NCBI GenBank assembly: GCA_017472735.1
Contig: JAFUOD010000002.1
Span: forward strand, 68,226 to 132,225
DNA from: Oscillospiraceae bacterium
GTDB taxonomy: Bacteria; Bacillota; Clostridia; Oscillospirales; Ruminococcaceae
Reading direction: 5' to 3'
Length of the DNA: 64,000 bases
Below are positions 7,898 through 50,268 of this stretch, piece after piece. The notes beneath the pieces were generated by a model that was not told where the DNA came from, searched no databases, and saw only the letters and a list, made by a program, of their open reading frames with translations. Numbering within the stretch: the first letter of the stretch is position 1; the number at the start of each line of letters is the position of its first letter. A program made the position numbers and the translations under genes.

Positions 7898-8124
7898 GGT
7901 GCGCTCGCTTCGCTCGCCTAATGCGGCACTCGCCCGGCACCCCCTTTTTTCAAAAGGGGACAGCCGTGCAACGCCGCGCCACCCCACCCCCGCCCCACGC
8001 AAAGCGTGCGGCGCCCCCTCCCCGCGGGGAGGGGGCTGTGCGGCGAAGCCGCGCAGGGGGTGGGGCAAGCGGCGTGGTTGCCCTAAGGCAACAAGTGCCG
8101 CATATGCCGCCGAAGGCGGCAACC
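7898..8124. repeat. GC-rich nested-hairpin intergenic element, copy A (largest)
   Basis: Outer stem 7921-7929/8095-8103. Inner stem 7982-7991/8056-8065 encloses three hairpins, including a perfect 22-nt palindrome at 8014-8035. Further hairpins lie at 7941-7959 and about 8078-8094. Confidence 0.8.
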
Positions 8125-8132
8125 TTTAAGCT

Positions 8133-8169
8133 ACAAAAAGCCGTACCGCTTTAAAAGCAGTACGGCTTT
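8133..8169 (-). terminator. Rho-independent terminator of the feo operon
   Basis: Stem AAGCCGTAC (8138-8146)/GTACGGCTT (8160-8168), with a T-run on the minus strand (complement of CAAAAAG). Confidence 0.7.
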
Positions 8170-8203
8170 AAGTGTCGTATTTTTAAGAAGATAACTATTT
8201 AAA

Positions 8204-8374
8204 TCAATGCCCGTGACAATTGCCACTGTTGGGGCATCCCTTACAGCCGCAGCCGCAAGAAGATTTGCCCTGTTTTTTGTCCTTAACCATTTTAAATATG
8301 ATTGCAAACAGAATTACTGCAACAACCAGCAAAACGATTATCGAAGTGAGATTTTCTGTAATAAAACCCAACAT
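8204..8374 (-). CDS. FeoB-associated Cys-rich small membrane protein (56 aa)
   Basis: Below the ORF-track length cut-off. My translation is MLGFITENLTSIIVLLVVAVILFAIIFKMVKDKKQGKSSCGCGCKGCPNSGNCHGH. It starts 14 nt downstream of the feoB stop. Confidence 0.7.
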   Translation of the reverse strand: MLGFITENLTSIIVLLVVAVILFAIIFKMVKDKKQGKSSCGCGCKGCPNSGNCHGH

Positions 8375-8387
8375 TTTAAACCTCCGT

Positions 8388-10619: not shown

Positions 10620-10648
10620 ATTTATCTCCGTTTCTTTTAGATGATTTC

Positions 10649-10666
10649 GGTTAGCTTAGGCTAACC
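10649..10666. promoter_or_regulatory. Candidate DtxR-family operator (site 1, between feoA and feoB)
   Basis: GGTTAGC-TTAG-GCTAACC palindrome. Its 16-nt core is identical, as reverse complement, to site 3. Confidence 0.55.
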
Positions 10667-10713
10667 CTTGTGCCAATTTTTAAGGGCTTAATGCCCTTTT
10701 GCTGATTCAAAGG

Positions 10714-10932: not shown

Positions 10933-10985
10933 CGCACTTCCTCCTCAAAAAAATTATATTGTAAAAACAGTTTATTAAAACTGAA

Positions 10986-11198: not shown

Positions 11199-11251
11199 AA
11201 TAGCCCTCCATCAACTGTATAAAACGCCTTGAAAGACGGTAGATTTCATTA

Positions 11252-11269: not shown

Positions 11270-11348
11270 AATAGTATAATACATCATTCGAGGCTTGAAA
11301 GTCAACGAAAAAACCGTTAAAAAAGCAATTTTGTATGAATGACGATAT

Positions 11349-11901: not shown

Positions 11902-12253
11902 ATATCAGCAAATATCCAAGTGCTAAAATAAGCTTAATGTCAGCATTGTTTTTGTAAAGAATAAACAGCAGGATAAGAATAAGCAGTTTTTCCGAGTCGA
12001 TGTTTGAACTGCCCGAAAAAAGCGAGCTTATTATATCGTTTTGCTTATGAATGGGCGGTGGGTTGTGATGCTGTTGTTTGTGCTGAGGCTTTGGTGCGGC
12101 GCTCGGCGCCGAGGTCGGGGCAGCGGCTTGGTCAGGCTCGGGCGGCGCATTTTGTTCAAACACAAGGCTTTTCGAGCGCTTTTGCATATCTCTCATGCGC
12201 TCCAAAGCCTCAAGCTGCATACGGCTAAAGCCCTGTTCATCATAATAAGCCAA
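11900..12253 (-). CDS. Hypothetical protein: Pro/Gln-rich middle, hydrophobic C-terminus
   Basis: 117 aa ORF whose start overlaps the end of the upstream ORF by 14 nt. No family recognised. Confidence 0.5.
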   Translation of the reverse strand: MAYYDEQGFSRMQLEALERMRDMQKRSKSLVFEQNAPPEPDQAAAPTSAPSAAPKPQHKQQHHNPPPIHKQNDIISSLFSGSSNIDSEKLLILILLFILYKNNADIKLILALGYLLI

Positions 12254-14267: not shown

Positions 14268-14298
14268 AGCTCTCTCCAATGCAGGAGGGAGCTTTTTT
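14268..14298 (+). terminator. Rho-independent terminator of araD
   Basis: GCTCTCTCC/GGAGGGAGC stem (one mismatch) followed by TTTTTT. Confidence 0.7.
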
Positions 14299-14424
14299 GC
14301 GCGCCGACGTCGCGCGGTGCGCCTAAGCGAAGCGAGGGCTGTACGCGCGGTGGAGGCGCCGCCGGCCGCCGTTCCTCGCCGCTGCGCTTCGCGCAGCGCT
14401 CGGCTTCGCCGTCAGACGGCACCG
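14299..14424. repeat. GC-rich hairpin-mosaic intergenic element, copy B
   Basis: Contains modules CGCCGACGTCG (14302-14312), AGCGAAGCGAG (14326-14336), CGGTGGAGGCGC (14348-14359) and GCCGTC-A-GACGGCAC (14408-14422), plus hairpin CTGCGC-TTC-GCGCAG. Confidence 0.8.
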
Positions 14425-14465
14425 TTCAACGATTGACTTTATATTATCATGTGTTATAATAATTT

Positions 14466-17398: not shown

Positions 17399-18208
17399 AT
17401 GAATATTTATGTTCTGGGTTTAGATAAACGCACGGCTTATTGCGCCGCCGTGCTTAAAGAGAGTTTTAAAACAGGTGTTATTCTGTGCGATAACGCCCAG
17501 TGTATATATCAGCCCGATGTTGTGGTGCTTCCTTATGTATCTTTTAAAAAGGGCAGAGGAATTAACACCCTTGACGGGGTAGATATAAAGGATGTTATTG
17601 AAAAAATGCCTGCAGGCTCGAAGCTTTTTGCAGGCATGATATATGACGGCTTTAAAGAGGAATGTGAAGAAAAGGATATTAAGCTTTATGACTTTTTCGA
17701 GGACGAAGACCTGACCCTTAAAAACGCCGACCTTACCGCCGAGGGTGCTCTGGAGCTGATAATCAAAAACACCGATATTGCGTTAGAGGGCATGAATGTT
17801 GCAATAACCGGCTTTGGCAGAGTTGCACGCTCGTGTGCAAGAATTTTAAATGCTGTCGGCGCAAAGATCGCTGTTTTGGCTCGCAAGCCTTATGCCCGAA
17901 TGGAAGCAAAATCGCTCGGTTATAATTCTGCAAACATCAGCGATGAAAAGGCGATCGAAAGTGCCGATGTTATTATTAACACAGTGCCGTCGCTTGTTTT
18001 AACCTCGCAAATGATTAAAAACGCAAAAAACTGCCGATACATTCTCGATTTAGCATCAGCACCATACGGTACAGACTTTGAAGCAGCGGAAAAAGCAGGC
18101 ATAAAAGCCGAGACAGCACCCGGCCTTCCTGCAAGGTGTGCGCCCGAAACCGCAGGCAGAATGATTGCGAAGTACATTACAGATGAGCTTAAAAGGGGAG
18201 GTGAATGA
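17399..18208 (+). CDS. dpaA: Dipicolinate synthase subunit A
   Basis: 269 aa with a Rossmann motif ITGFGRVARSCARIL. It directly precedes the flavoprotein-type subunit B. Confidence 0.8.
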   Translation: MNIYVLGLDKRTAYCAAVLKESFKTGVILCDNAQCIYQPDVVVLPYVSFKKGRGINTLDGVDIKDVIEKMPAGSKLFAGMIYDGFKEECEEKDIKLYDFFEDEDLTLKNADLTAEGALELIIKNTDIALEGMNVAITGFGRVARSCARILNAVGAKIAVLARKPYARMEAKSLGYNSANISDEKAIESADVIINTVPSLVLTSQMIKNAKNCRYILDLASAPYGTDFEAAEKAGIKAETAPGLPARCAPETAGRMIAKYITDELKRGGE

Positions 18209-18821: not shown

Positions 18822-19325
18822 TTATAGCAGTTTTCTTAACAGAAATTTGGGAGCTCGACCGATAACCACAAAGTCGGTCACTTCGCTGACATCATATCCA
18901 TTCTCTTTATATTCTTTCAAAAAATCTTGTTCGCACGAATAGATGATTTCTTTGCCATACCAAGGCTTGGCAGATTGCGGAGTAAGCTCTAAATATACAG
19001 TTTTGCTCTCAGCCTCAAATGTAAGAACAGTATGAGCCTTGTTTTTCTCCTTGTTAAATAACAGCCATATTTTATTGCAAATATTGTGCTCATCAAGAAT
19101 TGATCTCATCACAACAACTGCGTCTATACATGTCCCTATTTTCTCTTTTATAGTGTCATGCGGATCTTGAACGCGGTAAATTGTATTTGATAGCTGATAG
19201 TATTCGCTGTCAAAGCCTATGCTCATGTTAGGTCTATACTTTTTCCCGTTTGCATAAAAGCCGTACTCATAACCGTTGTTGAACAATTCGCTTCTTAACA
19301 GATTGCATATCTTGGCGATCGTCAT
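18822..19325 (-). CDS. Hypothetical protein, possibly transglutaminase-like cysteine peptidase fold
   Basis: 167 aa. GTCIDAVVVMRSIL followed by a downstream AHTVLTFE suggests a Cys-His arrangement. This assignment is weak. Confidence 0.4.
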   Translation of the reverse strand: MTIAKICNLLRSELFNNGYEYGFYANGKKYRPNMSIGFDSEYYQLSNTIYRVQDPHDTIKEKIGTCIDAVVVMRSILDEHNICNKIWLLFNKEKNKAHTVLTFEAESKTVYLELTPQSAKPWYGKEIIYSCEQDFLKEYKENGYDVSEVTDFVVIGRAPKFLLRKLL

Positions 19326-22921: not shown

Positions 22922-22942
22922 TTGAATCTACATGAACCAAAA

Positions 22943-22967
22943 GCTCTCGCTTTGCGGGGGCTTTTTT
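22943..22967 (+). terminator. Rho-independent terminator of the ferredoxin gene
   Basis: GCTCTCGC/GCGGGGGC stem (with G-U pairs) followed by TTTTTT. Confidence 0.7.
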
Positions 22968-22984
22968 CATTTGTGCATTTTTAA

Positions 22985-23096
22985 GCTGTGGTGCGGGGCA
23001 CCGCCGCCGGCTCCTTCGGAGCCGGCTTTTTGCAAACGCCGCAGACGTTTGCAATCTCCGCCCGCGAAAGCGGGCGGAGTGGGCGGTGCCTGCAGC
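22985..23096. repeat. GC-rich nested-hairpin intergenic element, copy C (closed multi-helix junction)
   Basis: Closing stem GGCACCGCC (22997-23005)/GGCGGTGCC (23082-23090) encloses hairpins 23007-23025 (cUUCGg loop), 23030-23054 (9-bp stem) and 23056-23079 (10-bp stem, GAAA loop). Confidence 0.85.
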
Positions 23097-23230
23097 AAAC
23101 CATATCTCACAGATATTTCACTAAAAAATAAGCTAATTTTTACTTATGCCTATTGTAATTTGCACACGGTTTATGTTAATATATCAGTGTGTACTTTGAA
23201 GAAGCATTTTTTGTCGAAGGAGGGAGCTTG

Positions 23231-24037
23231 TTGGCAAAATACACATTCCAAAGATTTGAAAAGAAGTTCCTTCTCACGGTCGAGCAAATGGACAGGCTGA
23301 TCCCAAAGTTTATCGAGCATGGCATGGAATATGATAAATATTGCGTAGGCGGCAACATCTATACGATTTATAACATTTATTTCGATGATGTTACCTCGTC
23401 GGTAATCAGACGCTCGATTCGCAAGCCCAAGTTTAAAGAAAAATTCAGAATGCGAAGCTATGTTGTGCCGGTAACAGGTGAGGAAAAAGTCTTTTTAGAG
23501 ATTAAGCGCAAGGTTAAAAAAATCGTTCTAAAACGCAGAGCTGTTCTTACATATAACGAGGCGCTTGCTTATTTGAAGGACGGCACTCGCCCCGAAACAG
23601 ATGATTATAACAAAATTAGAATGTTTAACGAGTTAGACAACTACCTTTGCCGAAACAAGGTTAAACCTGCGATTTATTTAAGCTATGAGCGTATAGCGTT
23701 TTTTGATAAGGTCGATAAGAATTTCAGAATAACCTTCGACAGGAATATTACCACCCGCAGGCACGATTTAGACCTTGCAAAGGGTTCATACGGCGAGCAG
23801 CTGCTTCACGAAAATGAGCGCTTGATGGAGGTTAAAATAACTCACACCTTGCCCAAGTGGTTAAGCGATATTTTAACAGAAGAAAAAATATTCATGTCCG
23901 GCTTCTCTAAATACGGTAACGAATACCGCCGGATGAAGGGCTACGAGTTTACTCATTTGTGCGACAGACACCCCTTACCCGTGAAATATGAAAAAACAGA
24001 AAAACAAGAGCAAAAGGATGGTTTGAAAATATTATGA
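23231..24037 (+). CDS. VTC-domain (polyphosphate polymerase / triphosphate-tunnel) protein
   Basis: KYTFQRFEKKFLL..IYNIYFDD..FRMRSY..FLEIKRKV..RITFDRNI is the bacterial VTC-domain pattern. Start uncertain (TTG 23228/23231 after AAGGAGGG; track ORF begins at 23189). Confidence 0.75.
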   Translation: MAKYTFQRFEKKFLLTVEQMDRLIPKFIEHGMEYDKYCVGGNIYTIYNIYFDDVTSSVIRRSIRKPKFKEKFRMRSYVVPVTGEEKVFLEIKRKVKKIVLKRRAVLTYNEALAYLKDGTRPETDDYNKIRMFNELDNYLCRNKVKPAIYLSYERIAFFDKVDKNFRITFDRNITTRRHDLDLAKGSYGEQLLHENERLMEVKITHTLPKWLSDILTEEKIFMSGFSKYGNEYRRMKGYEFTHLCDRHPLPVKYEKTEKQEQKDGLKIL

Positions 24038-24723
24038 TGGAGTTTCTTTTCCCAGCAATAGGTGACGTTGATTTGACAGCTACAGGCACAATAGTTTCAA
24101 TGAGTCTGTCGCTTGTTTTAGGCATTATTATAAGCGTAGTTTACGTTATTACAAACAAAAAACGAGGATATATTTCAAGCTTTCCCGCTGCAATCGTTAT
24201 TTTGGCACCGCTTATGGCAGGCGTAACACTGGTTATTAACTCGAATGTGGCAACTGCGGTTTCTTTGGGCGGTGCATTAACCCTCTTAAGAATAAGAAGC
24301 TACCCCAAGGACACCAAGGATATTGTAAGCCTTTTGTTTGCAATTGTTATAGGTCTTGGCTGCGGCACCGGCTATTTTGGAATTTCGATAATTATTACCA
24401 TAATTGTCTGTGCAATAATGGTTATTCTTAACACAACCAGATTCGGCGTTCCCAAGCCCACAAACATGCTTTTAAAAATCACCATTCCCGAGGATTTGAA
24501 CTTTGAAGGTGTGTTCGATGAGGTTTTGGAAAAGTACACTGATGACTATGCGTTAAAAGAAATCCGCACGACAGATTTCGGCTCACTTTACGAGTTAAGA
24601 TACATAATCAACCTTCCCGTTGAATCTGACAGACGCGAGTTTGTTGATGAGATAAGATGCCGCAACGGTAACCTTGATGTAATTCTCACTCTTCGTGAAT
24701 TCGATACAAATTTATATAAATAA
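24034..24723 (+). CDS. DUF4956-domain membrane protein
   Basis: Four N-terminal TM helices plus a soluble C-terminal domain. ATGA overlap with the VTC gene, the usual VTC partner arrangement. Confidence 0.65.
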   Translation: MMEFLFPAIGDVDLTATGTIVSMSLSLVLGIIISVVYVITNKKRGYISSFPAAIVILAPLMAGVTLVINSNVATAVSLGGALTLLRIRSYPKDTKDIVSLLFAIVIGLGCGTGYFGISIIITIIVCAIMVILNTTRFGVPKPTNMLLKITIPEDLNFEGVFDEVLEKYTDDYALKEIRTTDFGSLYELRYIINLPVESDRREFVDEIRCRNGNLDVILTLREFDTNLYK

Positions 24724-24730
24724 AAAATAA

Positions 24731-24754
24731 AGAGGCTGTTAAGCCTCTTTTTTG
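24731..24754 (+). terminator. Rho-independent terminator
   Basis: AGAGGCT/AGCCTCT stem followed by TTTTTT. Confidence 0.75.
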
Positions 24755-24790
24755 TTATATCTTATATCTCAAGTTGCTGATTTGCTATAT

Positions 24791-24833
24791 CCCTCCGCCG
24801 TCTTCGACGGCACCTCCCTTTATAAAAGGGAGG
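24791..24833. repeat. GC-rich hairpin-mosaic element, short copy D
   Basis: GCCGTC-TTC-GACGGCAC (24797-24813, also in copy B) followed by CCTCCCTT-TATA-AAGGGAGG (compare copy A, 7941-7959). Confidence 0.7.
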
Positions 24834-30376: not shown

Positions 30377-30793
30377 TTATATGTGCTTTGTCATTTTTAC
30401 ATGAGGGCAGCCTTCATCGAGGTATACATCACCCTCTGCTGCATAGCCGCAGGATTCATAGAATCCTTGCGCTCGGCACTGCGATGAAAGCTCGCACACC
30501 TTGCCACCCTTTTGCCTAATCATTTTCTCGGCTTCTTCCATAACCTCTTTACCCAAGCCCTTGCCTCGGTATTCTTTAATAACAGCCACACGCCCTATAT
30601 GCCAGCATTCGGGGTCGTCCTCATAAAAACAGCGGCAGGTGGCAACGGGCATATCGCCGTCATACATAACAAGGTGCAAAGCCCTTTCGTCAATGTCGTC
30701 AAACTCGTCTTTAAAGCCTTGTTCTTCAACAAAAACGGTTACTCTGATTTTAAGTGCGTCATCGCACAAACACTCATACGCTTTAATTTCCAT
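30377..30793 (-). CDS. GNAT-family N-acetyltransferase
   Basis: VAVIKEYRGKGLGKEVMEEAEKMIRQKG acetyl-CoA binding motif. Confidence 0.8.
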   Translation of the reverse strand: MEIKAYECLCDDALKIRVTVFVEEQGFKDEFDDIDERALHLVMYDGDMPVATCRCFYEDDPECWHIGRVAVIKEYRGKGLGKEVMEEAEKMIRQKGGKVCELSSQCRAQGFYESCGYAAEGDVYLDEGCPHVKMTKHI

Positions 30794-32016
30794 TACTTTC
30801 TGCGCTTTCTGGTAAGGTAGTAATCAAGCTCTTCCTTCATCTTTTCGGGGATCTCGCGCGAAACGGGGCAGCGAACAGCGTTTGCCATTCTTTCCGAGAA
30901 TGCATTGATAAAGTCGATGTCCTTAGCCATCTGCGAGGCTTTCATTACCGCCTTTGTGTCGTAGCTGTTGTGAATGGTTGCGGTGTTCGAGGGTGCAATT
31001 CTTGCAAACGAAAGTGCAGGCACGCCCTTATCGGCAAACGGGGTAGAGTCCGAGGAGTAAACATCCTGTTTTGCGCTAACACCAAAGCCAAGCTCATCGC
31101 TTAAATATTCAATATAGTTAACAAGCTTGTCTTCGGTTGTGCAGCACGCAATAAACTTGCCCATAATGCAGCCGATCATATCAAGGTTGATGTTTAAAAC
31201 AACATTTTTAAGTTCTTCTTCGTGTGATGAGCAGTAAGCCTTAGAGCCAAGCAAGCCTCTTTCTTCACTTCCGCACCAGATAAACTTAAGCGTGCGCTTG
31301 CAGGGATCAGCAAGGAAGTATTCGGCAATGCCCAAAAGCCCTATACTGCCCGACATATTATCGTAAGCGCCCTGAGAAAGGGAAGTGGAATCATAGTGCG
31401 CCGTAAACACAATAACCTCGTCCGATTCTCCCTTGATCTCGGCGACAACGTTTCTCGATTCACCTTTATATTCTTCCTGCTCAATAACTATCTTAGCAGT
31501 CTTAACCTCGTTATTAACAAGCTCAATAGCCTTCTTTGCGTTTATGTTAACGCCCAAGATCTTGTTTCCGTTTGAAACATAAGGCCTTAATTCGCGCTGG
31601 TCGATATCACAATCGGCATAGTTGGCATTTCCGTCGTAAGTAATAAAACCTACAGCACCGTTTTCCAAAAGGTCCTGATACATCCAGTAGCCCAAATAAC
31701 CGTCTATCATAACGATCTTGCCTTTGCACTGTGAAAGCGCATATTTCGAGGTGTTGTTAAGGTAATAAATAGGTGCTTCAACCTCGCCCGAGCCGCAAAG
31801 AAAATAGCCCTTGCAAACGATTTCTTCGCCGTCGCAGTAAAGATGTGCCTGCTTTATCGTTGCCATGTCAACCTCGAAAGGTTCAATGTCAGCATCAAGT
31901 CCGAGTTTTTTGCATTCGTCTACCAAATATTCGGCACACTTAAGTTCTTCTCCGCTGCCGCCCATTCTTACATAAGCGGTCTCGTTGAAAATTCTTTCAA
32001 TGTCACAAAGCTTCAT
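30793..32016 (-). CDS. M28-family metallo-aminopeptidase
   Basis: FTAHYDS..AYDNMSGS..WCGSEERGLLGSKAY zinc-ligand motifs. GGAGG RBS precedes the ATG at 32016. Confidence 0.75.
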   Translation of the reverse strand: MKLCDIERIFNETAYVRMGGSGEELKCAEYLVDECKKLGLDADIEPFEVDMATIKQAHLYCDGEEIVCKGYFLCGSGEVEAPIYYLNNTSKYALSQCKGKIVMIDGYLGYWMYQDLLENGAVGFITYDGNANYADCDIDQRELRPYVSNGNKILGVNINAKKAIELVNNEVKTAKIVIEQEEYKGESRNVVAEIKGESDEVIVFTAHYDSTSLSQGAYDNMSGSIGLLGIAEYFLADPCKRTLKFIWCGSEERGLLGSKAYCSSHEEELKNVVLNINLDMIGCIMGKFIACCTTEDKLVNYIEYLSDELGFGVSAKQDVYSSDSTPFADKGVPALSFARIAPSNTATIHNSYDTKAVMKASQMAKDIDFINAFSERMANAVRCPVSREIPEKMKEELDYYLTRKRRK

Positions 32017-32097
32017 AATATTCCTCCGCAAAAAATTAATTTTACACGTTTTATTATATCACATATTTAAATAAATGAAAGTGGTTTATGAGAAAAT

Positions 32098-32202
32098 CCG
32101 CGCCGACGTCGCGGCGCGCGTTTTCTTTAGAAACTGTGCGCGCGGTGGAGGCGCTCAAGGCGCACACTCCCACGCCGGGCTTCGCACCGCCGCGGGGCGC
32201 GC
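32098..32202. repeat. GC-rich hairpin-mosaic intergenic element, copy E
   Basis: Modules CGCCGACGTCG (32101-32111) and CGGTGGAGGCGC (32143-32154). Stem TGTGCGC/GCGCACA. It abuts the TraX stop codon (32203-32205). Confidence 0.8.
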
Positions 32203-32961
32203 TTATCTAAAAACTGCTATTAAATACAGCACCAGCATGTGCAAGGGGTAAAACACATAGCAAATGTATTTAAATGCCACGCTTGAATGACCTTTTCTTC
32301 CGTTGTAAAGCCATATCGGCAAAAGTGCAAGAAGGGCAAGCGCCTGCATATGTATAAAGAGATCAAGCCCAAAGAAGTTAAGCTCATATCCGTATCCGCC
32401 CAAGATTTCGGTGTTTATGTATAACAGAGCTGCAACTTGTCCCAAAAGGTTATACCATTTCTTTTCACGGAAGAAATAGAATACCAACACCGTCAGCACA
32501 CCGCCGCCGTAATAATCTGCCATAGTAATTATGCCTGCAATATACGACAGAAGCATAACGCACACGGTAGCAAGTGCATACACCCATTTTTGTTCTGCCT
32601 GCTTTGCACGTTCGAGCACCCACATTGCGCCAAGAGCCATTAAAAATGTCCACAAAACGTTTTGGTGCAGGGGATAAAACAACCCTCCGCCTGCCATAAG
32701 GTTAAACGGAATCTCGGAAATAACGGCAAACACCAAAAGCCTTACGGCATATTTTTTGAGGTTTTTGGTGCGATAGAACCCTTCAACCGTCATAAACGCA
32801 AAAATGGGAAAAGCTATTCGCCCAACACACCTTATCCAATCGTTATAAACAAGCCCGACAGCACCTATATGGTCTAAAAGCATACACACCATTGCAATAA
32901 TGTGCAGTCCTGCCGAGGATATATCAAAGTGCAGTTTTTTAGTTTCCATTACATTCTCCAA
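32203..32961 (-). CDS. TraX-family membrane protein
   Basis: LHIIAMVCMLLDHIG N-terminal motif; polytopic, 252 aa. Confidence 0.7.
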   Translation of the reverse strand: MENVMETKKLHFDISSAGLHIIAMVCMLLDHIGAVGLVYNDWIRCVGRIAFPIFAFMTVEGFYRTKNLKKYAVRLLVFAVISEIPFNLMAGGGLFYPLHQNVLWTFLMALGAMWVLERAKQAEQKWVYALATVCVMLLSYIAGIITMADYYGGGVLTVLVFYFFREKKWYNLLGQVAALLYINTEILGGYGYELNFFGLDLFIHMQALALLALLPIWLYNGRKGHSSVAFKYICYVFYPLHMLVLYLIAVFR

Positions 32962-38107: not shown

Positions 38108-38827
38108 ATGAAAAAAGACAGTAGCTTGTCAATACTTTTCAAGGGCTTGCTCCTTGAAAACCCTGTATTCGTTCTTATTTTGGGCACTTGCCCCACGCTT
38201 GCAACAACAAACACCGTTATCGGTGCGCTGGCAATGGGTCTTGCCGCAACTGCGGTTTTGATCTGCTCTAACGTGGTTATCTCGCTGTTAAGAAAGGTGA
38301 TACCCGAAACGGTAAGAATCCCTTGCTATATCGTAATTATTGCAGGCTTTGTAACCATTGTTCAAATGTTTATGCACGCATACCTGCCCGAGCTTTATGA
38401 GCTTTTGGGCGTGTATCTGGCGCTTATCACAGTTAACTGCATTATTTTGGGCAGAGCTGAAATGTTTGCTTCCAAAAACAACGTCGGCAAGTCGGCGCTC
38501 GACGGCGTGGGCATGGGCCTTGGCTTTACCATTGCGCTTTTGGCAATGGCAACCATTCGTGAGGTTTTTGGTGCAGGCACATTTGCAGGTATCGAGATCC
38601 CGTTCCTTATCGACCACACCGTAAATTATCTTACAAAGGCGCCCGGCGGTATGCTTGTTTACGGCATTTTAATTGCTGTTGTTTCAGTTATTACCAAAGG
38701 CAAATATCCTAAGAAAAAGAGCTTTGGCTGTGCAGGCTGTCCTTCGGCAGGCTTGTGCAAATCCTGCTCCTCTTGCGAAAACAATATTGAAGAAGCAGTA
38801 GATAACATTTTAAAGGAGGGCAACTAA
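38108..38827 (+). CDS. rnfE: Rnf complex subunit E with a C-terminal Cys-rich extension
   Basis: NqrD/RnfE core (LGTCPTLA..NCIILGRAE) plus the tail KKKSFGCAGCPSAGLCKSCSSCENN. Confidence 0.9.
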   Translation: MKKDSSLSILFKGLLLENPVFVLILGTCPTLATTNTVIGALAMGLAATAVLICSNVVISLLRKVIPETVRIPCYIVIIAGFVTIVQMFMHAYLPELYELLGVYLALITVNCIILGRAEMFASKNNVGKSALDGVGMGLGFTIALLAMATIREVFGAGTFAGIEIPFLIDHTVNYLTKAPGGMLVYGILIAVVSVITKGKYPKKKSFGCAGCPSAGLCKSCSSCENNIEEAVDNILKEGN

Positions 38828-41263: not shown

Positions 41264-42289
41264 ATGAAAAAGTTGTTAAGCATTGTTTTAGCCGTTGTTA
41301 TGACTGCTGTTTTGTTTGCAGGCTGCGGCGCTGCAAAGACTGTTAAGTTTGGTGTGGGTGTTTATTCTTACTATGAAGCCGGCACAAACGCTACCGAAGA
41401 AGCTGAAGGCACAGGCGAAGTGGTTTCGACTGCAGCTGCTGTTATGTTAGACGCTGACGGCAAGATCGTTAAGTGCGTTATCGACACGGTTGATTACACA
41501 GCTCACTGGACTTTGGCAGGCGAAGATATCACTTATGAAAACGACGAAGATATCAAGACCAAGTACGAACTCGGCACCAACTACGGCATGGCCGCTTACG
41601 GCAACGACGTTAACGGCGACGGCAAGGTCTTGGAATGGAATGAACAGATCGACGCTTTCTGCTCTGTAGTTGAAGGCAAGACCATTGACGAAGTTAAAGC
41701 TTTGGTAGTAGACGGTTATCAGGGAAACGAAGAGGTTATGAATGCCGGCTGTACCATTGGCATTGCAGATTATGTTAAGGCTTTGGAAAAGGCTGTTGCA
41801 AACGTTCAAGATTCGGGTGCTACTGCTAACGACACCTTGAAGCTTGCATTTGTTTCGACTGACGAAGGCAAGGGCGCAACCGAAGAAGCTGACGGCAGCG
41901 TTGAATTGGAAGTTACTATCGTTGGTGCGGCTGTTAATGCCGACGGCAAGGTTTCGGCAATGGTTACCGATGCTGTTCAGGCCGCATTCGGCTTCAACAC
42001 TGTAGGCGCTGCAACTTATGATGCCGCTGCTGAGATCAAGACCAAGCTTGAAAAGGGTGACAGCTATAATATGGCTGCTTACGGCACCGACCTTAACGGT
42101 GACGGCAAGGTTTTGGAATGGTATGATCAGGCTGCTGCGTTTAATGCTGAATGCTTGGGCAAGACCGCAAGCGAGATCTCGGCACTTGTTGTTGACGGTT
42201 ACGGCGTTGAATCCTTGCAGACCGCAGGCTGCACCATCGGTATCTCCGATATGGTAAAGGCTGCTGTTAAGGCTGCAACTGTTGCTTAA
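41264..42289 (+). CDS. Lipoprotein with two internal repeats of an FMN_bind-like module (uncharacterised)
   Basis: Lipobox LFAGC. Repeat 1 is about aa 27-180 and repeat 2 about aa 192-341. Each ends ..NGDGKVLEW..VVDGY....AGCTIGI.D.VKA..KA. Confidence 0.5.
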   Translation: MKKLLSIVLAVVMTAVLFAGCGAAKTVKFGVGVYSYYEAGTNATEEAEGTGEVVSTAAAVMLDADGKIVKCVIDTVDYTAHWTLAGEDITYENDEDIKTKYELGTNYGMAAYGNDVNGDGKVLEWNEQIDAFCSVVEGKTIDEVKALVVDGYQGNEEVMNAGCTIGIADYVKALEKAVANVQDSGATANDTLKLAFVSTDEGKGATEEADGSVELEVTIVGAAVNADGKVSAMVTDAVQAAFGFNTVGAATYDAAAEIKTKLEKGDSYNMAAYGTDLNGDGKVLEWYDQAAAFNAECLGKTASEISALVVDGYGVESLQTAGCTIGISDMVKAAVKAATVA

Positions 42290-44150: not shown

Positions 44151-44238
44151 CGGAAGGCGAGTGCCGAGCTGTGCCGCCGCGCCTCCACCGCCGGCACTGT
44201 TCGCCCCTTCGGGGCAAACGCGCCCGCCGACGTCGGCG
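44151..44238. repeat. GC-rich hairpin-mosaic intergenic element, copy F (inverted relative to B and E)
   Basis: GCGCCTCCACCG (44179-44190) is the reverse complement of the B/E module. CGCCGACGTCG lies at 44225-44235 inside a 14-nt palindrome. GCCCC-TTC-GGGGC hairpin. The element abuts the YitT stop codon. Confidence 0.8.
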
Positions 44239-45108
44239 CTAAATCTGCTGTTCGCCGTGAATCTTGTAACCTTCACCGAAAACCTCATTAGCGGTGGTTA
44301 CAATAGCAAACGATGCCTCGTCCTCACTTTTTATAATTTTAAGCGCTTTTGCTGCCAAACGCTTTTTAATAACGCACAAAACGACCTTTTTTTCTGCGCC
44401 CGAGTATGCACCCACGCCCTCCAAGAAAGTGGCACCTGCGTCAAGCTCGTTCAAAAGGCGGTCGGTAATCGCTTCATATTTATCCGAGATGATATAAATA
44501 ATCTTCGCTTCATCGCGGTTATAAAGAATCATATCAATAACGGTCGAATAAACAATAATGCAAATAACAGCATAAAGTGCAATCTCAATATCTTTGAAAA
44601 CAAGTGCAGACAAAGCAACAATAATGCCGTCGGTTATAACAAAAAGCTTGCCTGCGGAAAGATGCTTGAACTTTCTTCTTAAGAGCTTAACAATAACATC
44701 TGTGCCGCCTGTTGTAGCTCCCTCTCGAAGAATGATCTCAAGGCTTACCGCCATTGTAAAGCCGCCTGCAAGCGCTGCAAGCATAAGGTTTTCGGTAATA
44801 GGGTCAAACTGTGCAAAAATATCTATAAGCACTGAGGACAAAGCAACAGCGTAGATCGTTGGTGCCAAAAACCTAAACCCGAAAACAAAAATAGCCGCAA
44901 TAATTAAAGGAATGTTAAGGATAAGAATGATCGTGCCTGTTCCAAGCGAGGGGATAAAGTGGCTTATGATCATTGCAACACCTGTGAAACCGCCGGGCAC
45001 AATTCCGTTAGGTTCAATAAACAAGCTTACACCAATGGCATAAATCACCGTTGCAACGGTTATCATAAAATATTTTCTTAAAATGTTGCTAATCTTTGGG
45101 ATCTTCAT
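44239..45108 (-). CDS. YitT-family membrane protein (DUF2179 C-terminal domain)
   Basis: Polytopic N-terminus with repeated GG(F/T)TG motifs and a C-terminal soluble domain; 289 aa. Confidence 0.8.
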   Translation of the reverse strand: MKIPKISNILRKYFMITVATVIYAIGVSLFIEPNGIVPGGFTGVAMIISHFIPSLGTGTIILILNIPLIIAAIFVFGFRFLAPTIYAVALSSVLIDIFAQFDPITENLMLAALAGGFTMAVSLEIILREGATTGGTDVIVKLLRRKFKHLSAGKLFVITDGIIVALSALVFKDIEIALYAVICIIVYSTVIDMILYNRDEAKIIYIISDKYEAITDRLLNELDAGATFLEGVGAYSGAEKKVVLCVIKKRLAAKALKIIKSEDEASFAIVTTANEVFGEGYKIHGEQQI

Positions 45109-45258: not shown

Positions 45259-48000
45259 ATGATAAAAAGAGTGTTATCATTAATTTTAGCAGTTGTAATC
45301 GGTTTGTCAACCCTTTGTGCCTGCGCCCGGCACGAGGATGTCAAGAAGGACGATGTTCCTTCGGTAACATCTTCACCCGAACAAACCGAGGGCGAGGTTA
45401 CTTCGACTACTCAGGCGACTGCGACCGAAGAAACTACGACCGAAGCGACAACTACGCCCGAGGTTACAACGACCGAAGAAACCACAACAGCTGCAACCAC
45501 TACGACCGAGGCGGCTACTACCGAAGCTACGACTACGACAGTTACAACAACGACCGAGGCAACCACAACAACTGTCACCACCACTACTGAAGCCACAACG
45601 ACCACAGCCGCACCCAAGCCTGTTGAGCTTGGCGTTTTGGGCTATGATTTAAGCGAAAAGGTCTCGACCGATAAATCTCTTGCTAAGGGTAAGGTAACAA
45701 GCCTTGTTATTAACGAGGTCTGCCCGTCGAACAAAAACACTCTTGACGATAAAGACGGCGAATCAAAGGATTGGATCGAAATCTATAATCCTACCGACAG
45801 CGTTATCAATCTTGAGGGCGTTGGACTTTCGGATGATAAAAACGACCCGTTCAAGTGGACTTTCCCGAGCGTAAACATTCAAGCAAAGGGCTATATTATT
45901 GTATTCGCTTCCGATAAAGATATTAAGACCCCCGAGCTTCACACAAATTATAAGATTTCGGGTGGAAACGAAGAAATCGTTCTTACCTCATCCGACGGTA
46001 AGACCATCGATTCATTCATCATTTCTGCTACTGAAGAAGACCAGACCTATGGCAGATATCCCGATGGAAGCGATGGGTTGAGACTTCTCAGCGCAACTCC
46101 GGGCAAGTCGAATGACAAAGCCAAGGAGGTTGTCGAAGCAGGAACTCTTAAACCTCTGTTTTCTAACGAAAGCGGATTCTACAGCCAGCAGTTCAGCTTA
46201 AAAATCACCGCCGAACCGGGCTGCACAATTTATTACACCACGGATGGAAGCGTTCCCACGACAAAATCCAATAAATACACCCAGTCTATAACGATCAAGG
46301 ACCGTTCGAGCGACAAGGCGATTTTAACCTATAAACGTGATCTTACGGTTGCTGACGATTCGTTCTATCCTAACAAGGAATTTGAAAAGGCAACGATCAT
46401 TCGTGCAATTGCCGTTGATAAAAACGGTGTTGTCAGCGATGTTACTACTGCTACATATTTCGTAAGCTCGAGCATTGCAAATAAATATAAAGATGTTGAC
46501 CTTATCTCGGTAGTTATTGACCCCGATGACCTTTATGACCACGAAACAGGCATTTATGTTGCAGGTAAGGTGTTTGAGGATTGGCGTGCAGAGCACCCCA
46601 ACGATCCGCTTGACGGCAACTCTCAGGCAAACTTTAACCAGCGAGGAAGAGAATGGGAGCGTGACGCTCACATTGATTACTTCAGCTCAGCAAATCTCGA
46701 GTTCAGCTCTGATGTCGGCGTGAGAATTCACGGCGGCTGGTCGCGTAACAGCGCACAAAAGAGCCTTAGGTTCTACTTCCGCGACGAATATGGCGAAAGC
46801 AAGCTTGATTACGAGCTGTTTGAAGGCAATTATTCTGAAGATACAAACAAGAAAATTACTTCATATAAGCGTTTCCTTATCCGAAACGGCGGCAACGACT
46901 CGTATATTATGACCTTTAAAGACCCGTGGACACAGTCGCTGTTTAGCGAGTTCAATTTCGGCACACAGGCAACCAACCTTGTAATCTGCTTCCTCGACGG
47001 CGAATATTGGGGAGTCTATACGGCATGTGAATCACTTGACAAGCATTATGTCGAAGAAAAATACGGTGTGCCCGACGAAGACGTTGTTGTAATGAAGAAC
47101 AATTCTCTTGAAGACGGTGACGAACCCGGTGACGAAGAACTTTGGAATATAACCAGACGCTATATCCGTGACCACGACATGTCGAACCCCGACAATTACG
47201 CAAAGGCATGCGAAATGATGGATATGGATTCGTTTGCACAGTATATCGCTGCTGAAATTTATATCGGCAACGAGGACTGGATTTGGAACAATGCCGCATG
47301 GTGGCGTTCACGCTCGACCGATAAAGCAGACAGCCCTTATCAGGACGGTAAGTGGAGATTCTTGATGTTCGACGTTGAGTTTTCTATGAACCTTTACGGC
47401 AACGGCAAAGACGTTCAGTATGACATTTTAGATGATCTTCTTAGAAAAGATGGTTATTTCGGCCCCATTCTTTCTTCCCTCTTAAAGAACGATACATTCA
47501 AGCACAAGTTCGTTGTTGCATGTGAAGATGTTATGAACATCGCCTTCAACAAGAACTATGCCTCCAACAAGCTTAACTCTTACTTGCAGGAGTATTCGCC
47601 TTATCTTGAACAGCATTTTGACAGATATGTCGGCTGGCAATCGCTTAACGGCGTAAGAAATAATGTTGAGGACTGGAAGAAATGGGTTGCCAACAGGCAG
47701 AGCGCGTTCTTATCCATTCTTAAACAGGACCTTGGCATTGACGGTACAAACAACAAGGTCACTGTTGAATTAAGCGATACATCCGGAGGAATTGTCAGGG
47801 TGAACGGACACAAAGTACCCACAAGCGGCGGTTCGTGGAGCGGAACATATATGTCGGGATATAAAATCGTTATCGAGGCTGTTCCTGCAAAGGGCTATGA
47901 ATTCGTCGGCTGGTCGGGAAGCTATGACGGCGATGCAGCATCAATTACGGTTAATCCAGCAAAGGCATTGACCCTGAAAGCAAACTTTAAAAAGAAGTAG
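45259..48000 (+). CDS. CotH kinase-family surface lipoprotein with a Thr-rich stalk, lamin-tail (LTD) domain and C-terminal Listeria-Bacteroides-type repeat
   Basis: Lipobox LSTLCAC. LTD motif VINEVCPSN..DWIEIYNP. CotH core RIHGGWSR..LRNGGND. C-terminal GYEFVGWSGSY. Confidence 0.8.
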   Translation: MIKRVLSLILAVVIGLSTLCACARHEDVKKDDVPSVTSSPEQTEGEVTSTTQATATEETTTEATTTPEVTTTEETTTAATTTTEAATTEATTTTVTTTTEATTTTVTTTTEATTTTAAPKPVELGVLGYDLSEKVSTDKSLAKGKVTSLVINEVCPSNKNTLDDKDGESKDWIEIYNPTDSVINLEGVGLSDDKNDPFKWTFPSVNIQAKGYIIVFASDKDIKTPELHTNYKISGGNEEIVLTSSDGKTIDSFIISATEEDQTYGRYPDGSDGLRLLSATPGKSNDKAKEVVEAGTLKPLFSNESGFYSQQFSLKITAEPGCTIYYTTDGSVPTTKSNKYTQSITIKDRSSDKAILTYKRDLTVADDSFYPNKEFEKATIIRAIAVDKNGVVSDVTTATYFVSSSIANKYKDVDLISVVIDPDDLYDHETGIYVAGKVFEDWRAEHPNDPLDGNSQANFNQRGREWERDAHIDYFSSANLEFSSDVGVRIHGGWSRNSAQKSLRFYFRDEYGESKLDYELFEGNYSEDTNKKITSYKRFLIRNGGNDSYIMTFKDPWTQSLFSEFNFGTQATNLVICFLDGEYWGVYTACESLDKHYVEEKYGVPDEDVVVMKNNSLEDGDEPGDEELWNITRRYIRDHDMSNPDNYAKACEMMDMDSFAQYIAAEIYIGNEDWIWNNAAWWRSRSTDKADSPYQDGKWRFLMFDVEFSMNLYGNGKDVQYDILDDLLRKDGYFGPILSSLLKNDTFKHKFVVACEDVMNIAFNKNYASNKLNSYLQEYSPYLEQHFDRYVGWQSLNGVRNNVEDWKKWVANRQSAFLSILKQDLGIDGTNNKVTVELSDTSGGIVRVNGHKVPTSGGSWSGTYMSGYKIVIEAVPAKGYEFVGWSGSYDGDAASITVNPAKALTLKANFKKK
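45400..45609 (+). repeat. Low-complexity Thr/Glu/Ala-rich coding repeats inside the CotH-family gene
   Basis: Translated TTTEATTT(P/T)(E/V)VTTTE-type units repeated about 8 times. The nucleotide units are imperfect. Confidence 0.8.
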
Positions 48001-48022
48001 TTAAAAATCAGGTAAACTCGTT

Positions 48023-48049
48023 CAGCCCGCCTTTACCACAGACGGGCTG
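48023..48049 (+). terminator. Terminator-like hairpin after the CotH-family gene
   Basis: CAGCCCG/CGGGCTG stem. The following T-run is weak (ATAATTTT). Confidence 0.45.
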
Positions 48050-48055
48050 ATAATT

Positions 48056-50077
48056 TTGCAAAGAAAAGCAGGTATAAAATTGATTAAAACAGCAAATTTC
48101 GAAATTATAAAACTAAAAGAGAGAAAACCGTTGATAACAGGACTTTGCATAAGTGCGGCAATGCTTGTTTTGGTTTTGTTTAACATTAAAGAATTTTGGG
48201 CAAACGATGTATTCAATTGGGCAGGCGCAATTAAGTGTCTGGCGTTATTTGCAATTATGACAGCCTTTTTGATTATAAAAATCAAACTTCCCAAATGGGT
48301 CGAGTTCGGTGTGTCGATTGCAATGCTGTTTGCAGGGCCTTATTTGATTTTTGAAATGGTAAGGCTTTTGGTCGGTGCGCCCGAATACACCTCTTACATT
48401 TACGAGATGAATTTAATTTTTTATGTGGCTTTGCAGTTTTTAGTGTTCATCTTCACCCAGTCGCCGCGTGTTGCAATCGTTTCGGGCTTGGTAATAAGCT
48501 GGGGCGTTCATATTGCTAACGAGCTTGTTTTGCTTATAAGAGGAACACCTTTGGTGCCTACCGACTTATATGCAATTACAACCGCAATGACAGTAACCAC
48601 CCCGCAAAGCTGGCATTTTAATGTTTCAATGCTTTTGGGCACACTTTGCTGTGTTGCAATGATAGCTTTTGTTTGGCAGTTCAAGCTTGTTTACCCCAAG
48701 TGGTGGGCAAGAATACCAGCGGTTATTGTTGGCATTGCAATAACGGCAAACTGCATTTATGAAATTGCAATACTTGATTACGAGTCTTTCTCGACAAGCA
48801 CCTTCGACCAGGAATCGACAAACAATGTAAACGGAATTGCATTAGGATTTTATATTAACTGCCGTAAAATGCAGTTTGATGAGCCTGTAGGCTACAGCGA
48901 AGCGGCTATTGAGGAATTCCTTTCGCAATATACCGACGAAACCTTGGAAGAGGGAGAAGAACTTCCCAACATTATTGTTGTAATGAACGAGAGCTTTGCA
49001 GACCTTTCTTATGTCGGCAAGTTAAGAACCGATAACCCATATATGGAATACTTCAACAGCCTTACCCGTAAGTACCCTCACGGAAAGCTTTTAGTTTCGG
49101 TTTTGGGCGGAGGAACCTGCAACACCGAGTTTGAGTTCTTAACAAGTCTTTCAATGCTTAACATGCCAAATAACTGCTATGCATATATGCAGCATATCAC
49201 CGGCGAGACACCTTCGCTTGCGTCGTATCTTAACGGCTTTGGCTATCGTTCGATTGCAATGCACCCGTTCTATGAAATCTGCTGGAAACGTAATTCGATT
49301 TATCCCTTTATGGGCTTTGAGGATTACATCAGCGGCGAGGATATGTCGGACGACCACGGTATTTATGTAAGCGCAGACCGCTGGGAAAAAGGCTTTGGCG
49401 ATGATGTTGAATATATAAGAACGCTTATAAGCGACAGCTTCTTCTATAAAGAGCTTATTAAGGAGTTTGAAAGCAAGGGCGAGGATGAAAAAATGTTCAT
49501 CTTTGCTGTAACCGTTCAAAACCACAGCTCTTATGAATATGACGGTGAGGATTTTGAAACCGACGTTCATATTACAAACTATGAGGGTGAATACCCCAGA
49601 GCCGAGCAGTATTTGTCACTTGTCAAAGACTCGAACGAAGCACTTGAAGAACTTATAACATATTTTGAAGGCGTTGATGAAAAGACCATGATAGTCTTCT
49701 TTGGTGACCATCAGCCAAACGTTGAACATCAGCTCATCAATCAAATGGCACCTTACCGCAATCTTATTGTTAACAGCTATTTGTCGAGATATATGACACC
49801 GTTTGTTATTTGGGCAAATTATGATATCGGTGAGGCTGAGGATTTGGGCGTTATGAGCGCAAATTATCTTGGCTTAACTGCTCTGGAATATGCAGGCGTG
49901 CCTCTTTCGAGAGAATATCAGATGATAATGGACACGCGTGAGGTATCTATCGCTCAGAATGCTTGGGGTTATTACGACAAATTCCACGCATGGTATGACC
50001 GTGAGGACGAAGCCTATAAAGATGAGATTTTGAACATTTATAACTATTATACATATTGGATGCTAAACGACAGATAA
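48056..50077 (+). CDS. LTA synthase (LtaS)-family sulfatase-fold phosphoglycerol transferase
   Basis: Multi-TM N-terminus plus an extracellular domain with VVMNESFAD and GGGTCNTEFEFLT motifs. The start codon is uncertain (TTG at 48056 is very close to the upstream hairpin). Confidence 0.8.
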   Translation: MQRKAGIKLIKTANFEIIKLKERKPLITGLCISAAMLVLVLFNIKEFWANDVFNWAGAIKCLALFAIMTAFLIIKIKLPKWVEFGVSIAMLFAGPYLIFEMVRLLVGAPEYTSYIYEMNLIFYVALQFLVFIFTQSPRVAIVSGLVISWGVHIANELVLLIRGTPLVPTDLYAITTAMTVTTPQSWHFNVSMLLGTLCCVAMIAFVWQFKLVYPKWWARIPAVIVGIAITANCIYEIAILDYESFSTSTFDQESTNNVNGIALGFYINCRKMQFDEPVGYSEAAIEEFLSQYTDETLEEGEELPNIIVVMNESFADLSYVGKLRTDNPYMEYFNSLTRKYPHGKLLVSVLGGGTCNTEFEFLTSLSMLNMPNNCYAYMQHITGETPSLASYLNGFGYRSIAMHPFYEICWKRNSIYPFMGFEDYISGEDMSDDHGIYVSADRWEKGFGDDVEYIRTLISDSFFYKELIKEFESKGEDEKMFIFAVTVQNHSSYEYDGEDFETDVHITNYEGEYPRAEQYLSLVKDSNEALEELITYFEGVDEKTMIVFFGDHQPNVEHQLINQMAPYRNLIVNSYLSRYMTPFVIWANYDIGEAEDLGVMSANYLGLTALEYAGVPLSREYQMIMDTREVSIAQNAWGYYDKFHAWYDREDEAYKDEILNIYNYYTYWMLNDR

Positions 50078-50082
50078 TGTGC

Positions 50083-50118
50083 ATTCTCCGCTTTGCTTTT
50101 GCAGGGCGGAGAATTTTT
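50083..50118 (+). terminator. Rho-independent terminator of the LtaS-family gene
   Basis: ATTCTCCGC/GCGGAGAAT 9-bp stem followed by TTTTTG. Confidence 0.75.
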
Positions 50119-50128
50119 GTGTGTTTTT

Positions 50129-50268
50129 GCCGCACTGCCTGCCAAGCGCCCCCGCACCGCCGCTTTCAGCGGCGGCTTTCTTCGCCGTTTAGGCGAAGCC
50201 CCCGCTTGCAGCCCCAAGGGGATGCAAGCGGGCAGGGGGCGCCGGCACTCGCACTTGCCCTGCACCGA
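50129..50268. repeat. GC-rich nested-hairpin intergenic element, copy G
   Basis: Closing stem GCGCCCCC (50146-50153)/GGGGGCGC (50235-50242) encloses three hairpins: CCGCCGCT-TTC-AGCGGCGG, CTTCGCC-GTTTA-GGCGAAG, and a 10-bp stem CCCGCTTGCA/TGCAAGCGGG with an inner CCCC-AA-GGGG. Confidence 0.85.

Follow-up and report, generated by a model that had tools for sequence, protein, structure and literature searches.

Repeats of the REP type are best known from Proteobacteria. A second group, which includes ERIC, the Correia/NEMIS elements of Neisseria, BOX and RUP of the pneumococcus and Bcr1 of Bacillus, consists of intergenic repeats that resemble miniature inverted-repeat transposable elements (MITEs) and fold as long hairpins. 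Foldbacks with several arms and trinucleotide loops, a design that works in single-stranded DNA, are found in the inverted terminal repeats (ITRs) of adeno-associated virus (AAV) and parvoviruses and in the telomere palindromes of Streptomyces. REPs are 20–40 nt long, with stems of 5–13 bp and a GTAG or CGTC tag, and Firmicutes are not among the phyla in which they are recorded (PMC3733652). The GC clusters and double-hairpin elements of fungal mitochondria are also GC-rich palindromic modules, and the mechanism that mobilises them is unknown (PMC4478555). Here we analyse seven GC-rich intergenic blocks, A to G, in a 64-kb window of an Oscillospiraceae genome (contig JAFUOD010000002.1, positions 68,226 to 132,225). 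We interpret them, with modest confidence, as a lineage-restricted, REP/BIME-like family of non-autonomous GC-rich palindromic DNA repeats.

In what follows W is the 64-kb window and L-numbers are loci fetched from relatives, whose orthologous regions were retrieved through homologues of three window proteins. The genes of the window are ordinary housekeeping genes, with no transposase seen among them, and their proteins occur with identical sequence on metagenome contigs, for example ENA ERZ27256818 k141_597403.

Composition and unit types of the blocks

The G+C content of the blocks is 72% in A, 78% in B, 70.5% in C, 60.5% in D, 74% in E, 77% in F and 72% in G (range 60.5–77.8%), against 44.4% for the window, which agrees with the initial annotation and with its hand count of about 70% for C. 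All seven are intergenic and none interrupts a gene. When stretches of 40 nt with a G+C content of at least 70% were sought, six of the seven were recovered and D, the smallest and least GC-rich, was missed. All other islands found in this way are coding; those at 406–466, 12078–12155, 18106–18159 and 38478–38530 were considered as extra blocks and rejected, as they do not fold into hairpins. The five short modules reported earlier are all present in the blocks to which they had been assigned, and the sharing of words exceeds that of dinucleotide shuffles: 16 canonical 11-mers are common to different blocks, compared with 2.0 ± 1.9 in the shuffles, none of which reaches 16 (0 of 300). The 12-mers GCGCCGACGTCG and CGGTGGAGGCGC are confined to B, E and F, with about 0.14 chance matches expected. 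No long direct repeats among the blocks were found in the repeat search, and only short modules are common to them.

The blocks had been read as seven copies of one hairpin-dense family; they consist instead of two unit types, a rod (unit R, in B, E and F) and a cloverleaf (unit C, in C and G and within A), plus fragments, represented by D. High hairpin density applies to A, C, D and G, for which the minimum free energy (MFE) of the whole block lies far below that of shuffles (z = -5.9 to -8.8). It does not apply to B, E and F as whole blocks (z = +0.2 to -1.3), although their 55–61-nt cores each fold to a single rod. The 64 kb contain three rods and three to four cloverleaf blocks, and all copies seen are extragenic.

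The rods and their tails lie as follows (bit scores are those of covariance model R1, described below; features without a sign carry no strand).

14301–14359 (+): B rod, GCGCC-GA-CGTCG ... CGGTG-GA-GGCGC with a GCGAAGC-type tip; 71.3 bits; folds as a single rod
14360–14424: B tail, GC-rich, with GGCTTCGCCGTCAGACGGCACCG; probable degenerate inverted rod partner
32100–32154 (+): E rod; 66.2 bits; antisense to both neighbours, which are on the minus strand
32155–32202: E tail, GC-rich; possible degenerate inverted partner; model E = 0.078
44179–44239 (-): F rod; 73 bits; sense to the YitT-like gene at 44239–45108 (-)
44151–44178 (-): F tail, with the minus-strand sequence GGCGGCACAGCTCGGCACTCGCC; probable inverted partner, truncated

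Aligned with reverse-complemented F and with copies from metagenome-assembled genomes (MAGs), the rods are 48–62 nt long. Their consensus fold, obtained with RNAalifold, runs from base to tip through a 5-bp stem (GCGCC/GGCGC), a symmetric GA/GA internal loop, a second 5-bp stem (CGUCG/CGGUG) that holds tandem G.U and U.G pairs, a variable region and an apical hairpin, often with a GAA-type loop. Model R1, trained on 16 rod copies, recovers these and more divergent ones, which gives 22 rods in the window and in related Oscillospiraceae ("Candidatus Faeciplasma"-like), and all 22 show the single-rod fold. Across this set the paired share of cells is 96.4%, double-sided changes are seen at five pairs and neither of the two G.U wobbles varies; the pairing signal is not matched by any of 500 column shuffles and is destroyed when the 3' partners are shifted by 1–3 columns. 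Because the base of 16 of the 22 was fixed by the exact pattern with which they were fetched, its invariance there holds by construction, and the evidence for pairing comes from the model-found copies and the variable region. At the E-site ortholog L054 16727–16779, the second stem is GGUCU/AGGUC, with pairs 1 and 5 changed on both sides and the wobbles kept, and the rod at L013 1861–1919(+) carries compensatory changes in both stems.

The latter rod forms, with 1929–1997(-), the one clear case of a tail-to-tail inverted dimer, and many rods are monomeric. The tails of B, E and F have words in common with clearer inverted partners in L013, L037, L053 and L062, such as GGCTTCGCCG...GACG[GT]C[AG]CCG, and words of the B tail also occur in tails of L013, L037, L053, L054 and L062. 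The F tail includes CGGCACTCGC, which is present in A and G as well, and the F-site tail of L062 terminates in GCGACGTCGCC. Run without filters on the B and E tails, R1 gives weak matches only (E = 0.08–0.12). Judging from these words, the three tails are probably degenerate inverted rod copies, with the model matches being weak.

The cloverleaf units, the composite block A and the fragment D have the following parts, again without assigned strand.

7898–8124: block A, composite nested element; MFE -156 kcal/mol, z = -8.8
7921–7930/8094–8103: A outer stem, ATGCGGCACT/AGTGCCGCAT
7935–7966: A first enclosed hairpin
7971–8075: A inner cloverleaf, with closing stems 7971–7977/8069–8075 and 7982–7991/8056–8065
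7996–8008, 8013–8036 and 8037–8055: hairpins of the A inner cloverleaf
8077–8092: A last enclosed hairpin
8105–8121: A trailing hairpin
22985–23096: C cloverleaf, with closing stems 22985–22989/23092–23096 and 22996–23005/23082–23091; z = -6.8; found by the strict scanner
23006–23026 (TTC loop), 23030–23054 and 23056–23079 (GAAA loop): C hairpins
24791–24833: block D, two-hairpin fragment with no closing stem; MFE z = -5.9
24797–24811: D hairpin 1, GCCGTC-TTC-GACGGC
24813–24833: D hairpin 2, CCTCCCTTT-ATA-AAAGGGAGG
50129–50268: G cloverleaf, with closing stem 50146–50153/50235–50242 (GCGCCCCC/GGGGGCGC) and GC-rich flanks on both sides; z = -6.0
50157–50175, 50180–50198 and 50201–50232: G hairpins

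The cloverleaf measures about 95–115 nt and has a closing stem of 8–12 bp around three adjacent near-perfect hairpins with stems of 5–14 bp. Block A is recursive, with a complete cloverleaf plus two hairpins inside its outer stem. The small block D has the words GCCGTC..GACGGCACC in common with the B tail and GGCACC.CC..TTT..AAAGGG in common with A; the resemblance of GCCGTC..GACGGC to a Neisseria uptake sequence was treated as coincidence. The same cloverleaf design is present in L058 and L060 (C site), in L061 and L023 (G site), in L030 (two paralogs) and in L009, L013 and L046, and exactly three hairpin loops are found in the MFE folds of 12 of the 14 units. A strict scanner, which demands perfect hairpin stems and a perfect closing stem, each of at least 6 bp, was applied to 301 kb of lineage DNA, where it detected six three-hairpin units, and to 484 kb of mostly high-GC control DNA, which yielded no such unit and only four two-hairpin cases. 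At the F site of L063, which is more distantly related (74% LTA-synthase identity, 43% G+C), there is a cloverleaf of about 53% G+C at 6070–6149; the design thus extends beyond its GC-rich versions, and GC-island scans would miss such units.

Recurrence of the rod was examined with the pattern GCGCCGACGTCG-N19–49-CGGTGGAGGCGC in one genome per species. Among 49 loci, multi-copy matches at low GC are restricted to JAZSPX01, a 'Candidatus Faeciplasma sp.' MAG with 11, and CAYWXA01, an uncultured Oscillospiraceae MAG with three; the other loci are single matches in genomes of 56–77% G+C, as expected by chance. The modules were expected to recur if the family was real, and these exact core matches bear that out. 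Matches to the same pattern in JGI metagenome contigs (41) were rejected as chance, since nearly all are in high-GC contigs and seven are in one conserved coding region. Viral contigs gave no match to the pattern, and blastn found none for B against plasmids or for C against phages.

Position of the units relative to genes

Blocks A, B, C, D and G begin shortly after the T-run of an upstream terminator-like hairpin, at distances of 12, 0–2, 16, 38 and 12 nt, respectively, and E and F are placed at stop codons, in accordance with the earlier statement that every copy follows a stop codon or terminator. The hairpins before B (14270–14298), C, D and G (50083–50117) come from a terminator scan and that before A was read by eye. 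Block A lies between convergent terminator-like hairpins, of a PTAC gene and a feoB-associated gene. Block E abuts the stop codon, at 32203, of a TraX-like gene (32203–32961, -), with its other neighbour at 30793–32031 (-), and the first base of the F rod overlaps the TAG stop (44239) of the YitT-like gene. Only three of about 25 unit hairpins in the window are themselves followed by a T-run (23006–23026, 50157–50175 and the E rod on the minus strand), and the units as a set do not fit the definition of an intrinsic terminator. An Rfam match to STnc50 at 24678–24759 (+), at 36 bits against a gathering threshold of 55, falls on the bidirectional terminator before D and was dismissed as almost certainly chance.

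The end of block B lies 8 nt upstream of the -35 box of a promoter at 14433–14460 (TTGACT-16-TATAAT, 11 of 12 positions matching). This promoter drives a cobalamin riboswitch (RF00174, 14439–14638, +, 43.7 bits) upstream of a DUF4430 gene. The cobalamin-riboswitch operon is wholly missing in L105, and other genes stand in its place in L053.

GC islands account for 15.9% of the bases between genes and for 4.9% of those in coding sequence. Of the intergenic regions, 7 of 25 convergent, 21 of 84 tandem and 2 of 29 divergent ones contain an island (divergent versus the rest, p = 0.04), and in tandem regions 15 of 18 islands are closer to the upstream stop codon (p = 0.008), typically 28–59 nt after it and just past the terminator. 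The proposed bias towards gene 3' ends therefore has a solid direction, while the p-values are rough, as they depend on a home-made codon-usage gene caller, on orthologous sites that are not independent and on many loci that were chosen for their rod content. The same caller skips the Pro/Gly/Ala/Arg-rich open reading frames (ORFs) across the blocks, in line with the earlier reading of them as artefacts of composition; the mechanical ORFs at 22932–23300 (+, 122 aa; block C) and 44161–44682 (+, 173 aa; block F) are among those that it did not choose.

Sites C, D and B coincide with gene gains or losses between relatives. In addition, a 167-aa gene of the window with a weak transglutaminase-like match (18822–19325, -) is replaced in L054 (2391–2549) and L060 (1765–1854) by a GC-rich hairpin block, located between the flavoprotein and methyltransferase genes.

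Persistence and turnover of the units among relatives

Comparison of orthologous regions showed that blocks A, B, C, D and G vary in presence among relatives, a variation that the initial annotation had proposed to look for. The A site is full in W, is reduced in L106 to its 3' third with two orphan 3' stem arms, and holds nothing in L105; these orphan arms mark the L106 remnant as a deletion derivative. At the B site, W has the rod and its tail, L106 has the rod alone, the difference being a cleanly bounded indel of about 60 nt, and L105 again has nothing, while L053 carries a B-like block in a different gene neighbourhood. Altogether L105 has no block in 20.5 kb, compared with two in the matching region of W. 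The D site is empty in L053 and L054, and in L054 the interval consists of the bidirectional terminator only. Orthologous rods occupy the E site in L040 (8–61) and L054 (16727–16779), both without the tail.

The C site, which spans the interval from the ferredoxin terminator to the VTC promoter, is occupied by cloverleaves in four cases (W, L058, L059 and L060). Their flanks are conserved and their closing stems related (GGGGCACCGCC/GGCGGTGCC), but the inner hairpins differ. L053, L054 and L056 have no unit there. A similar pattern was observed at the G site, where L061 (12068–12165) and L023 (60–160) keep the closing stem of W and have hairpins 2 and 3 replaced; the hairpins of these two loci are recognisably related to each other, and hairpins 2 and 3 of W are different. 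The G site is empty in L063. W, L023, L061 and L062 all retain the rod of the F site, with tips that differ through symmetric changes, and L063 has its cloverleaf in the place of the rod. In total, units persist at orthologous sites across 80–87% protein identity.

Related units were also found at different loci. L030 contains two identical rods 2.3 kb apart, the rods of L022 and L049 are one compensatory pair apart, the two cloverleaves L030a and L030b are paralogous (alignment z = 24), and the C-site cloverleaf is related to L046 6115–6212, a non-orthologous locus with another gene context (z = 10.8). The patterns at orthologous sites, together with these related units at non-orthologous loci, show that units have spread by copying to other intergenic positions, have been retained in different species at orthologous sites, and have been lost, truncated or extended, and that hairpin arms change together or are swapped whole.

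An unlikely account of these data is that the blocks arose in place, without mobility, by template switching (snap-back synthesis) near terminators followed by GC-biased correction. It would explain why most inner hairpins are unique, with perfect arms and minimal loops of 3–4 nt, as well as the symmetric arm changes, the completely different hairpins between orthologs, the adjacency of units to terminator T-runs and the recursive nesting of block A. However, one and the same 24-nt rod base is found at many unrelated loci in several species, and whole cloverleaves are related across loci (L030a with L030b, and W_C with L046). Local origin also leaves the fixed arrangement of a closing stem and three hairpins unexplained, and L105 and L056 keep their terminators without blocks.

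It is quite improbable that the units are selected protein-binding or structural DNA sites, comparable with those proposed for gyrase, IHF or Pol I at BIMEs, with priming signals or with cruciforms. The strongly conserved rod base, with a CGACGTCG/GCGCCGAC-GTCGGCGC palindrome in some subtypes, the fixed cloverleaf design and the persistence at orthologous sites are in line with such a role. The patchy occurrence in close relatives, best seen in L105, is not, and neither are the lack of a constant spacing or orientation to genes and the tolerance of truncated copies in L106; furthermore, the analysis yielded no candidate for a protein that binds them.

The blocks appear to be places where short-read assemblies break. 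The contig of L062 ends in an Illumina adapter (AGATCGGAAGAGCGTCGTGTAGGG..., 12108–12141) inside the G-site block, which is cut there, and in L009 a duplicated GC-rich 54-mer stands on either side of an N gap (7313–7410). Such breaks could be taken to suggest that the blocks are assembly artefacts, or their likeness a coincidence of composition. This explanation is effectively refuted, because units with conserved flanks are present in independent ENA, Logan and NCBI assemblies, and the statistics are also far beyond shuffles.

Searches for known families and enzymes

In the whole window, Rfam searched at the gathering threshold and at E <= 1 returned the cobalamin riboswitch and two sub-threshold matches, none of them on a block, and ARAGORN found no tRNA or tmRNA. 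Since no described REP family fits the units either (PMC3733652), the earlier failure to recognise a described family stands. In the literature we found no described family from Clostridia or Faeciplasma and no cloverleaf or nested palindromic repeats, within a coverage that mostly excludes subscription journals and so does not prove novelty.

The idea of a RAYT-like transposase acting on the blocks found no support. RAYT or IS200-type genes were not seen among the Pfam-scanned ORFs of the window or among the Pfam labels of the fetched loci, and tblastn with IS200, IS608 and RAYT queries, a weak search that covered 322 kb of lineage DNA, gave no credible match. The fetched lineage DNA did not contain a parent insertion sequence with matching ends either. 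The units also differ from integron attC sites: they are flanked by housekeeping genes that lie in both orientations and have promoters of their own, and no integrase was seen.

Two ORFs of the window contain repeats of another kind. The 913-aa ORF at 45259–48000 has Thr/Glu-rich tandem repeats at 45370–45612, with periods of 15 and 18 nt, and the 341-aa ORF at 41264–42289 has internal 117-nt repeats at 41374–42130, with three GTTAACGGCGACGGCAAGGT-like words; the latter repeats may be calcium-binding or dockerin-like.

Evidence for maintenance at the DNA or RNA level

Loops of the GNA type are not usually those favoured by selection on RNA, and HUH transposases use strand-specific single-stranded-DNA substrates. 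The pairs of the cloverleaves comprise 510 G-C, 110 A-T and 17 G.T (17/637 = 2.7%), compared with 14% G.T in the rods. Their loops are of 3 nt in 26 of 46 cases and of 4 nt in 14, and among the 26 triloops 17 have the sequence GNA or the complementary TNC, where 12.5% would be expected (p = 4e-10). Hairpins with C-GNA-G loops are extraordinarily stable DNA mini-hairpins (PMC13037366, PMC3201870). The near-pure Watson-Crick stems and the GNA loops point to palindromy that is kept in DNA, as hairpins of single-stranded DNA. For the rods, the wobbles and the GA/GA loop make the fold specific to one strand, which would fit an RNA and, just as well, a strand-specific substrate of single-stranded DNA.

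In the family of non-autonomous DNA repeats that we favour, the active form would be a hairpin in single-stranded DNA, and its arms would be kept perfect by intrastrand templated correction or replacement, as in the idea of quasipalindrome correction, and not by selection on RNA. Survival of units would be confined to the dead zone that extends from a terminator or stop codon to the promoter, or the convergent terminator, that follows. In addition, the units may favour the T-run end of terminators, since the 5' edge of the rod abuts a T-run in about half of the roughly 20 flanks inspected. Transcripts that read through could possibly carry the units as stable 3' or intercistronic structures.

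Several points weigh against this interpretation, in addition to the sampling of the rods and the rough placement statistics mentioned above. We infer mobility from dispersal alone; a clean filled/empty pair with identical flanks was not found among the relatives compared, nor was there any consistent target-site duplication or fixed target word at about 20 rod flanks, and the candidate enzymes were not encountered in the searches described above. Copy numbers refer to about 320 kb of sampled lineage DNA and not to whole genomes. At orthologous sites the rod base outconserves its flanks, with the wobbles invariant, which fits selection on an RNA or on a protein site equally well: at the F site the 17-nt base halves are 88–100% identical, while the upstream coding flank is 70–83% identical and the downstream flank, at 46–52%, is effectively unalignable. 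Finally, the rods lean towards the sense orientation to the upstream gene, at about 11 versus 3 independent loci (p = 0.057), which hints at a role at the RNA level.

These last two points are part of the case for a structured RNA, which would make the rod, and perhaps the cloverleaf, a 3' or intercistronic stabiliser, a processing site of the RNase III type or a site for an RNA-binding protein, present on the transcript of the upstream gene or inside operon transcripts; we consider this rather unlikely. The compensatory pairs, the invariant tandem G.U/U.G and the GA/GA loop do give the rod a strand-specific fold, the rods of L022, L027, L046 and L009 lie between co-directional genes or directly before a ribosome-binding site, and in L023 and L061 the F-site rod lies between the stop codon and the terminator. 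On the other hand, the E-site rod is kept in W, L040 and L054 although antisense to both neighbours, and most blocks of the window lie past a terminator-like hairpin and its T-run; a 3' stabiliser would need read-through, because this applies to five of the seven. The rarity of G.U pairs in the cloverleaf, its mostly 3-nt loops of the type that stabilises hairpins of DNA and not of RNA, the wholesale replacement of inner hairpins between orthologs and the lack of an Rfam match also argue against an RNA.

A broader proposal, which we advance only tentatively, is that rod and cloverleaf form an unrecognised class of self-propagating elements in Clostridia, structured as single-stranded DNA, in which an enzyme other than RAYT, or a self-templating process, would insert, exchange and nest whole hairpins. 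Such a class would be a bacterial counterpart of the mitochondrial GC clusters, with the four-way junction of the cloverleaf as the substrate.

Comparison with known systems

The initial annotation likened the blocks to REP/BIME- or MITE-like mosaic repeats. The likeness to REP, BIME and REPIN elements holds for behaviour: both sets are GC-rich imperfect palindromes, intergenic and mostly at gene 3' ends, occur as single units, in mosaic clusters and, here in one clear case, as inverted dimers, have a conserved stem base with variable tips, and are retained at orthologous sites in numbers that vary between relatives. It does not hold for tag and size. The units lack an unpaired GTAG or CGTC tag, the CGTC of the rod being paired within its second stem, and the rod, with 48–62 nt, three stem segments and internal loops, is outside the size and stem definition of a REP; the cloverleaf has no REP counterpart. 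Moreover, the host belongs to a Firmicute lineage, and no RAYT was seen in the weak search made.

With MITE-like repeats the units share a length of 50–150 nt, paired ends (here the closing stems), an intergenic or 3'-UTR position and possible co-transcription with an effect on mRNA stability. They differ from these in having no detectable target-site duplication, in their unrelated sequences and in the turnover of their internal hairpins. Intrinsic terminators are also GC-rich hairpins at gene 3' ends, but most unit hairpins have no T-run, and the units are optional and lie beyond separate, conserved terminators.

What distinguishes this set from a routine repeat is the fixed three-hairpin cloverleaf, its nesting, and the turnover of hairpins with perfect arms. 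As the arms remain perfect while their sequence is replaced, the units offer a clean natural system for studying the origin, correction and movement of palindromes. If the census holds genome-wide, REP-like biology extends to an uncultured gut lineage of Clostridia. The blocks also seem to break short-read assemblies and create spurious ORFs, and knowing them would help the assembly and annotation of MAGs from this group.

The closest analogy in behaviour is with the mitochondrial GC clusters, which are likewise distributed over the spacers of a genome richer in AT, can be present or absent in close relatives and fall into several families; here, in contrast, the units are in a bacterial chromosome of 44% G+C, have a rod or three-hairpin architecture and show no relation in sequence. 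The closest shape is that of the AAV ITRs and Streptomyces telomeres, which combine a closing stem with short perfect GC-rich hairpins and 3-nt loops (GNA or AAA/TTT), whereas the present units are internal to the chromosome, have three arms instead of two and show no sign of nicking or priming. Taken together, these comparisons describe an apparently undescribed set of repeats that is REP/BIME-like in behaviour and distinct from REP and BIME elements in sequence and shape.

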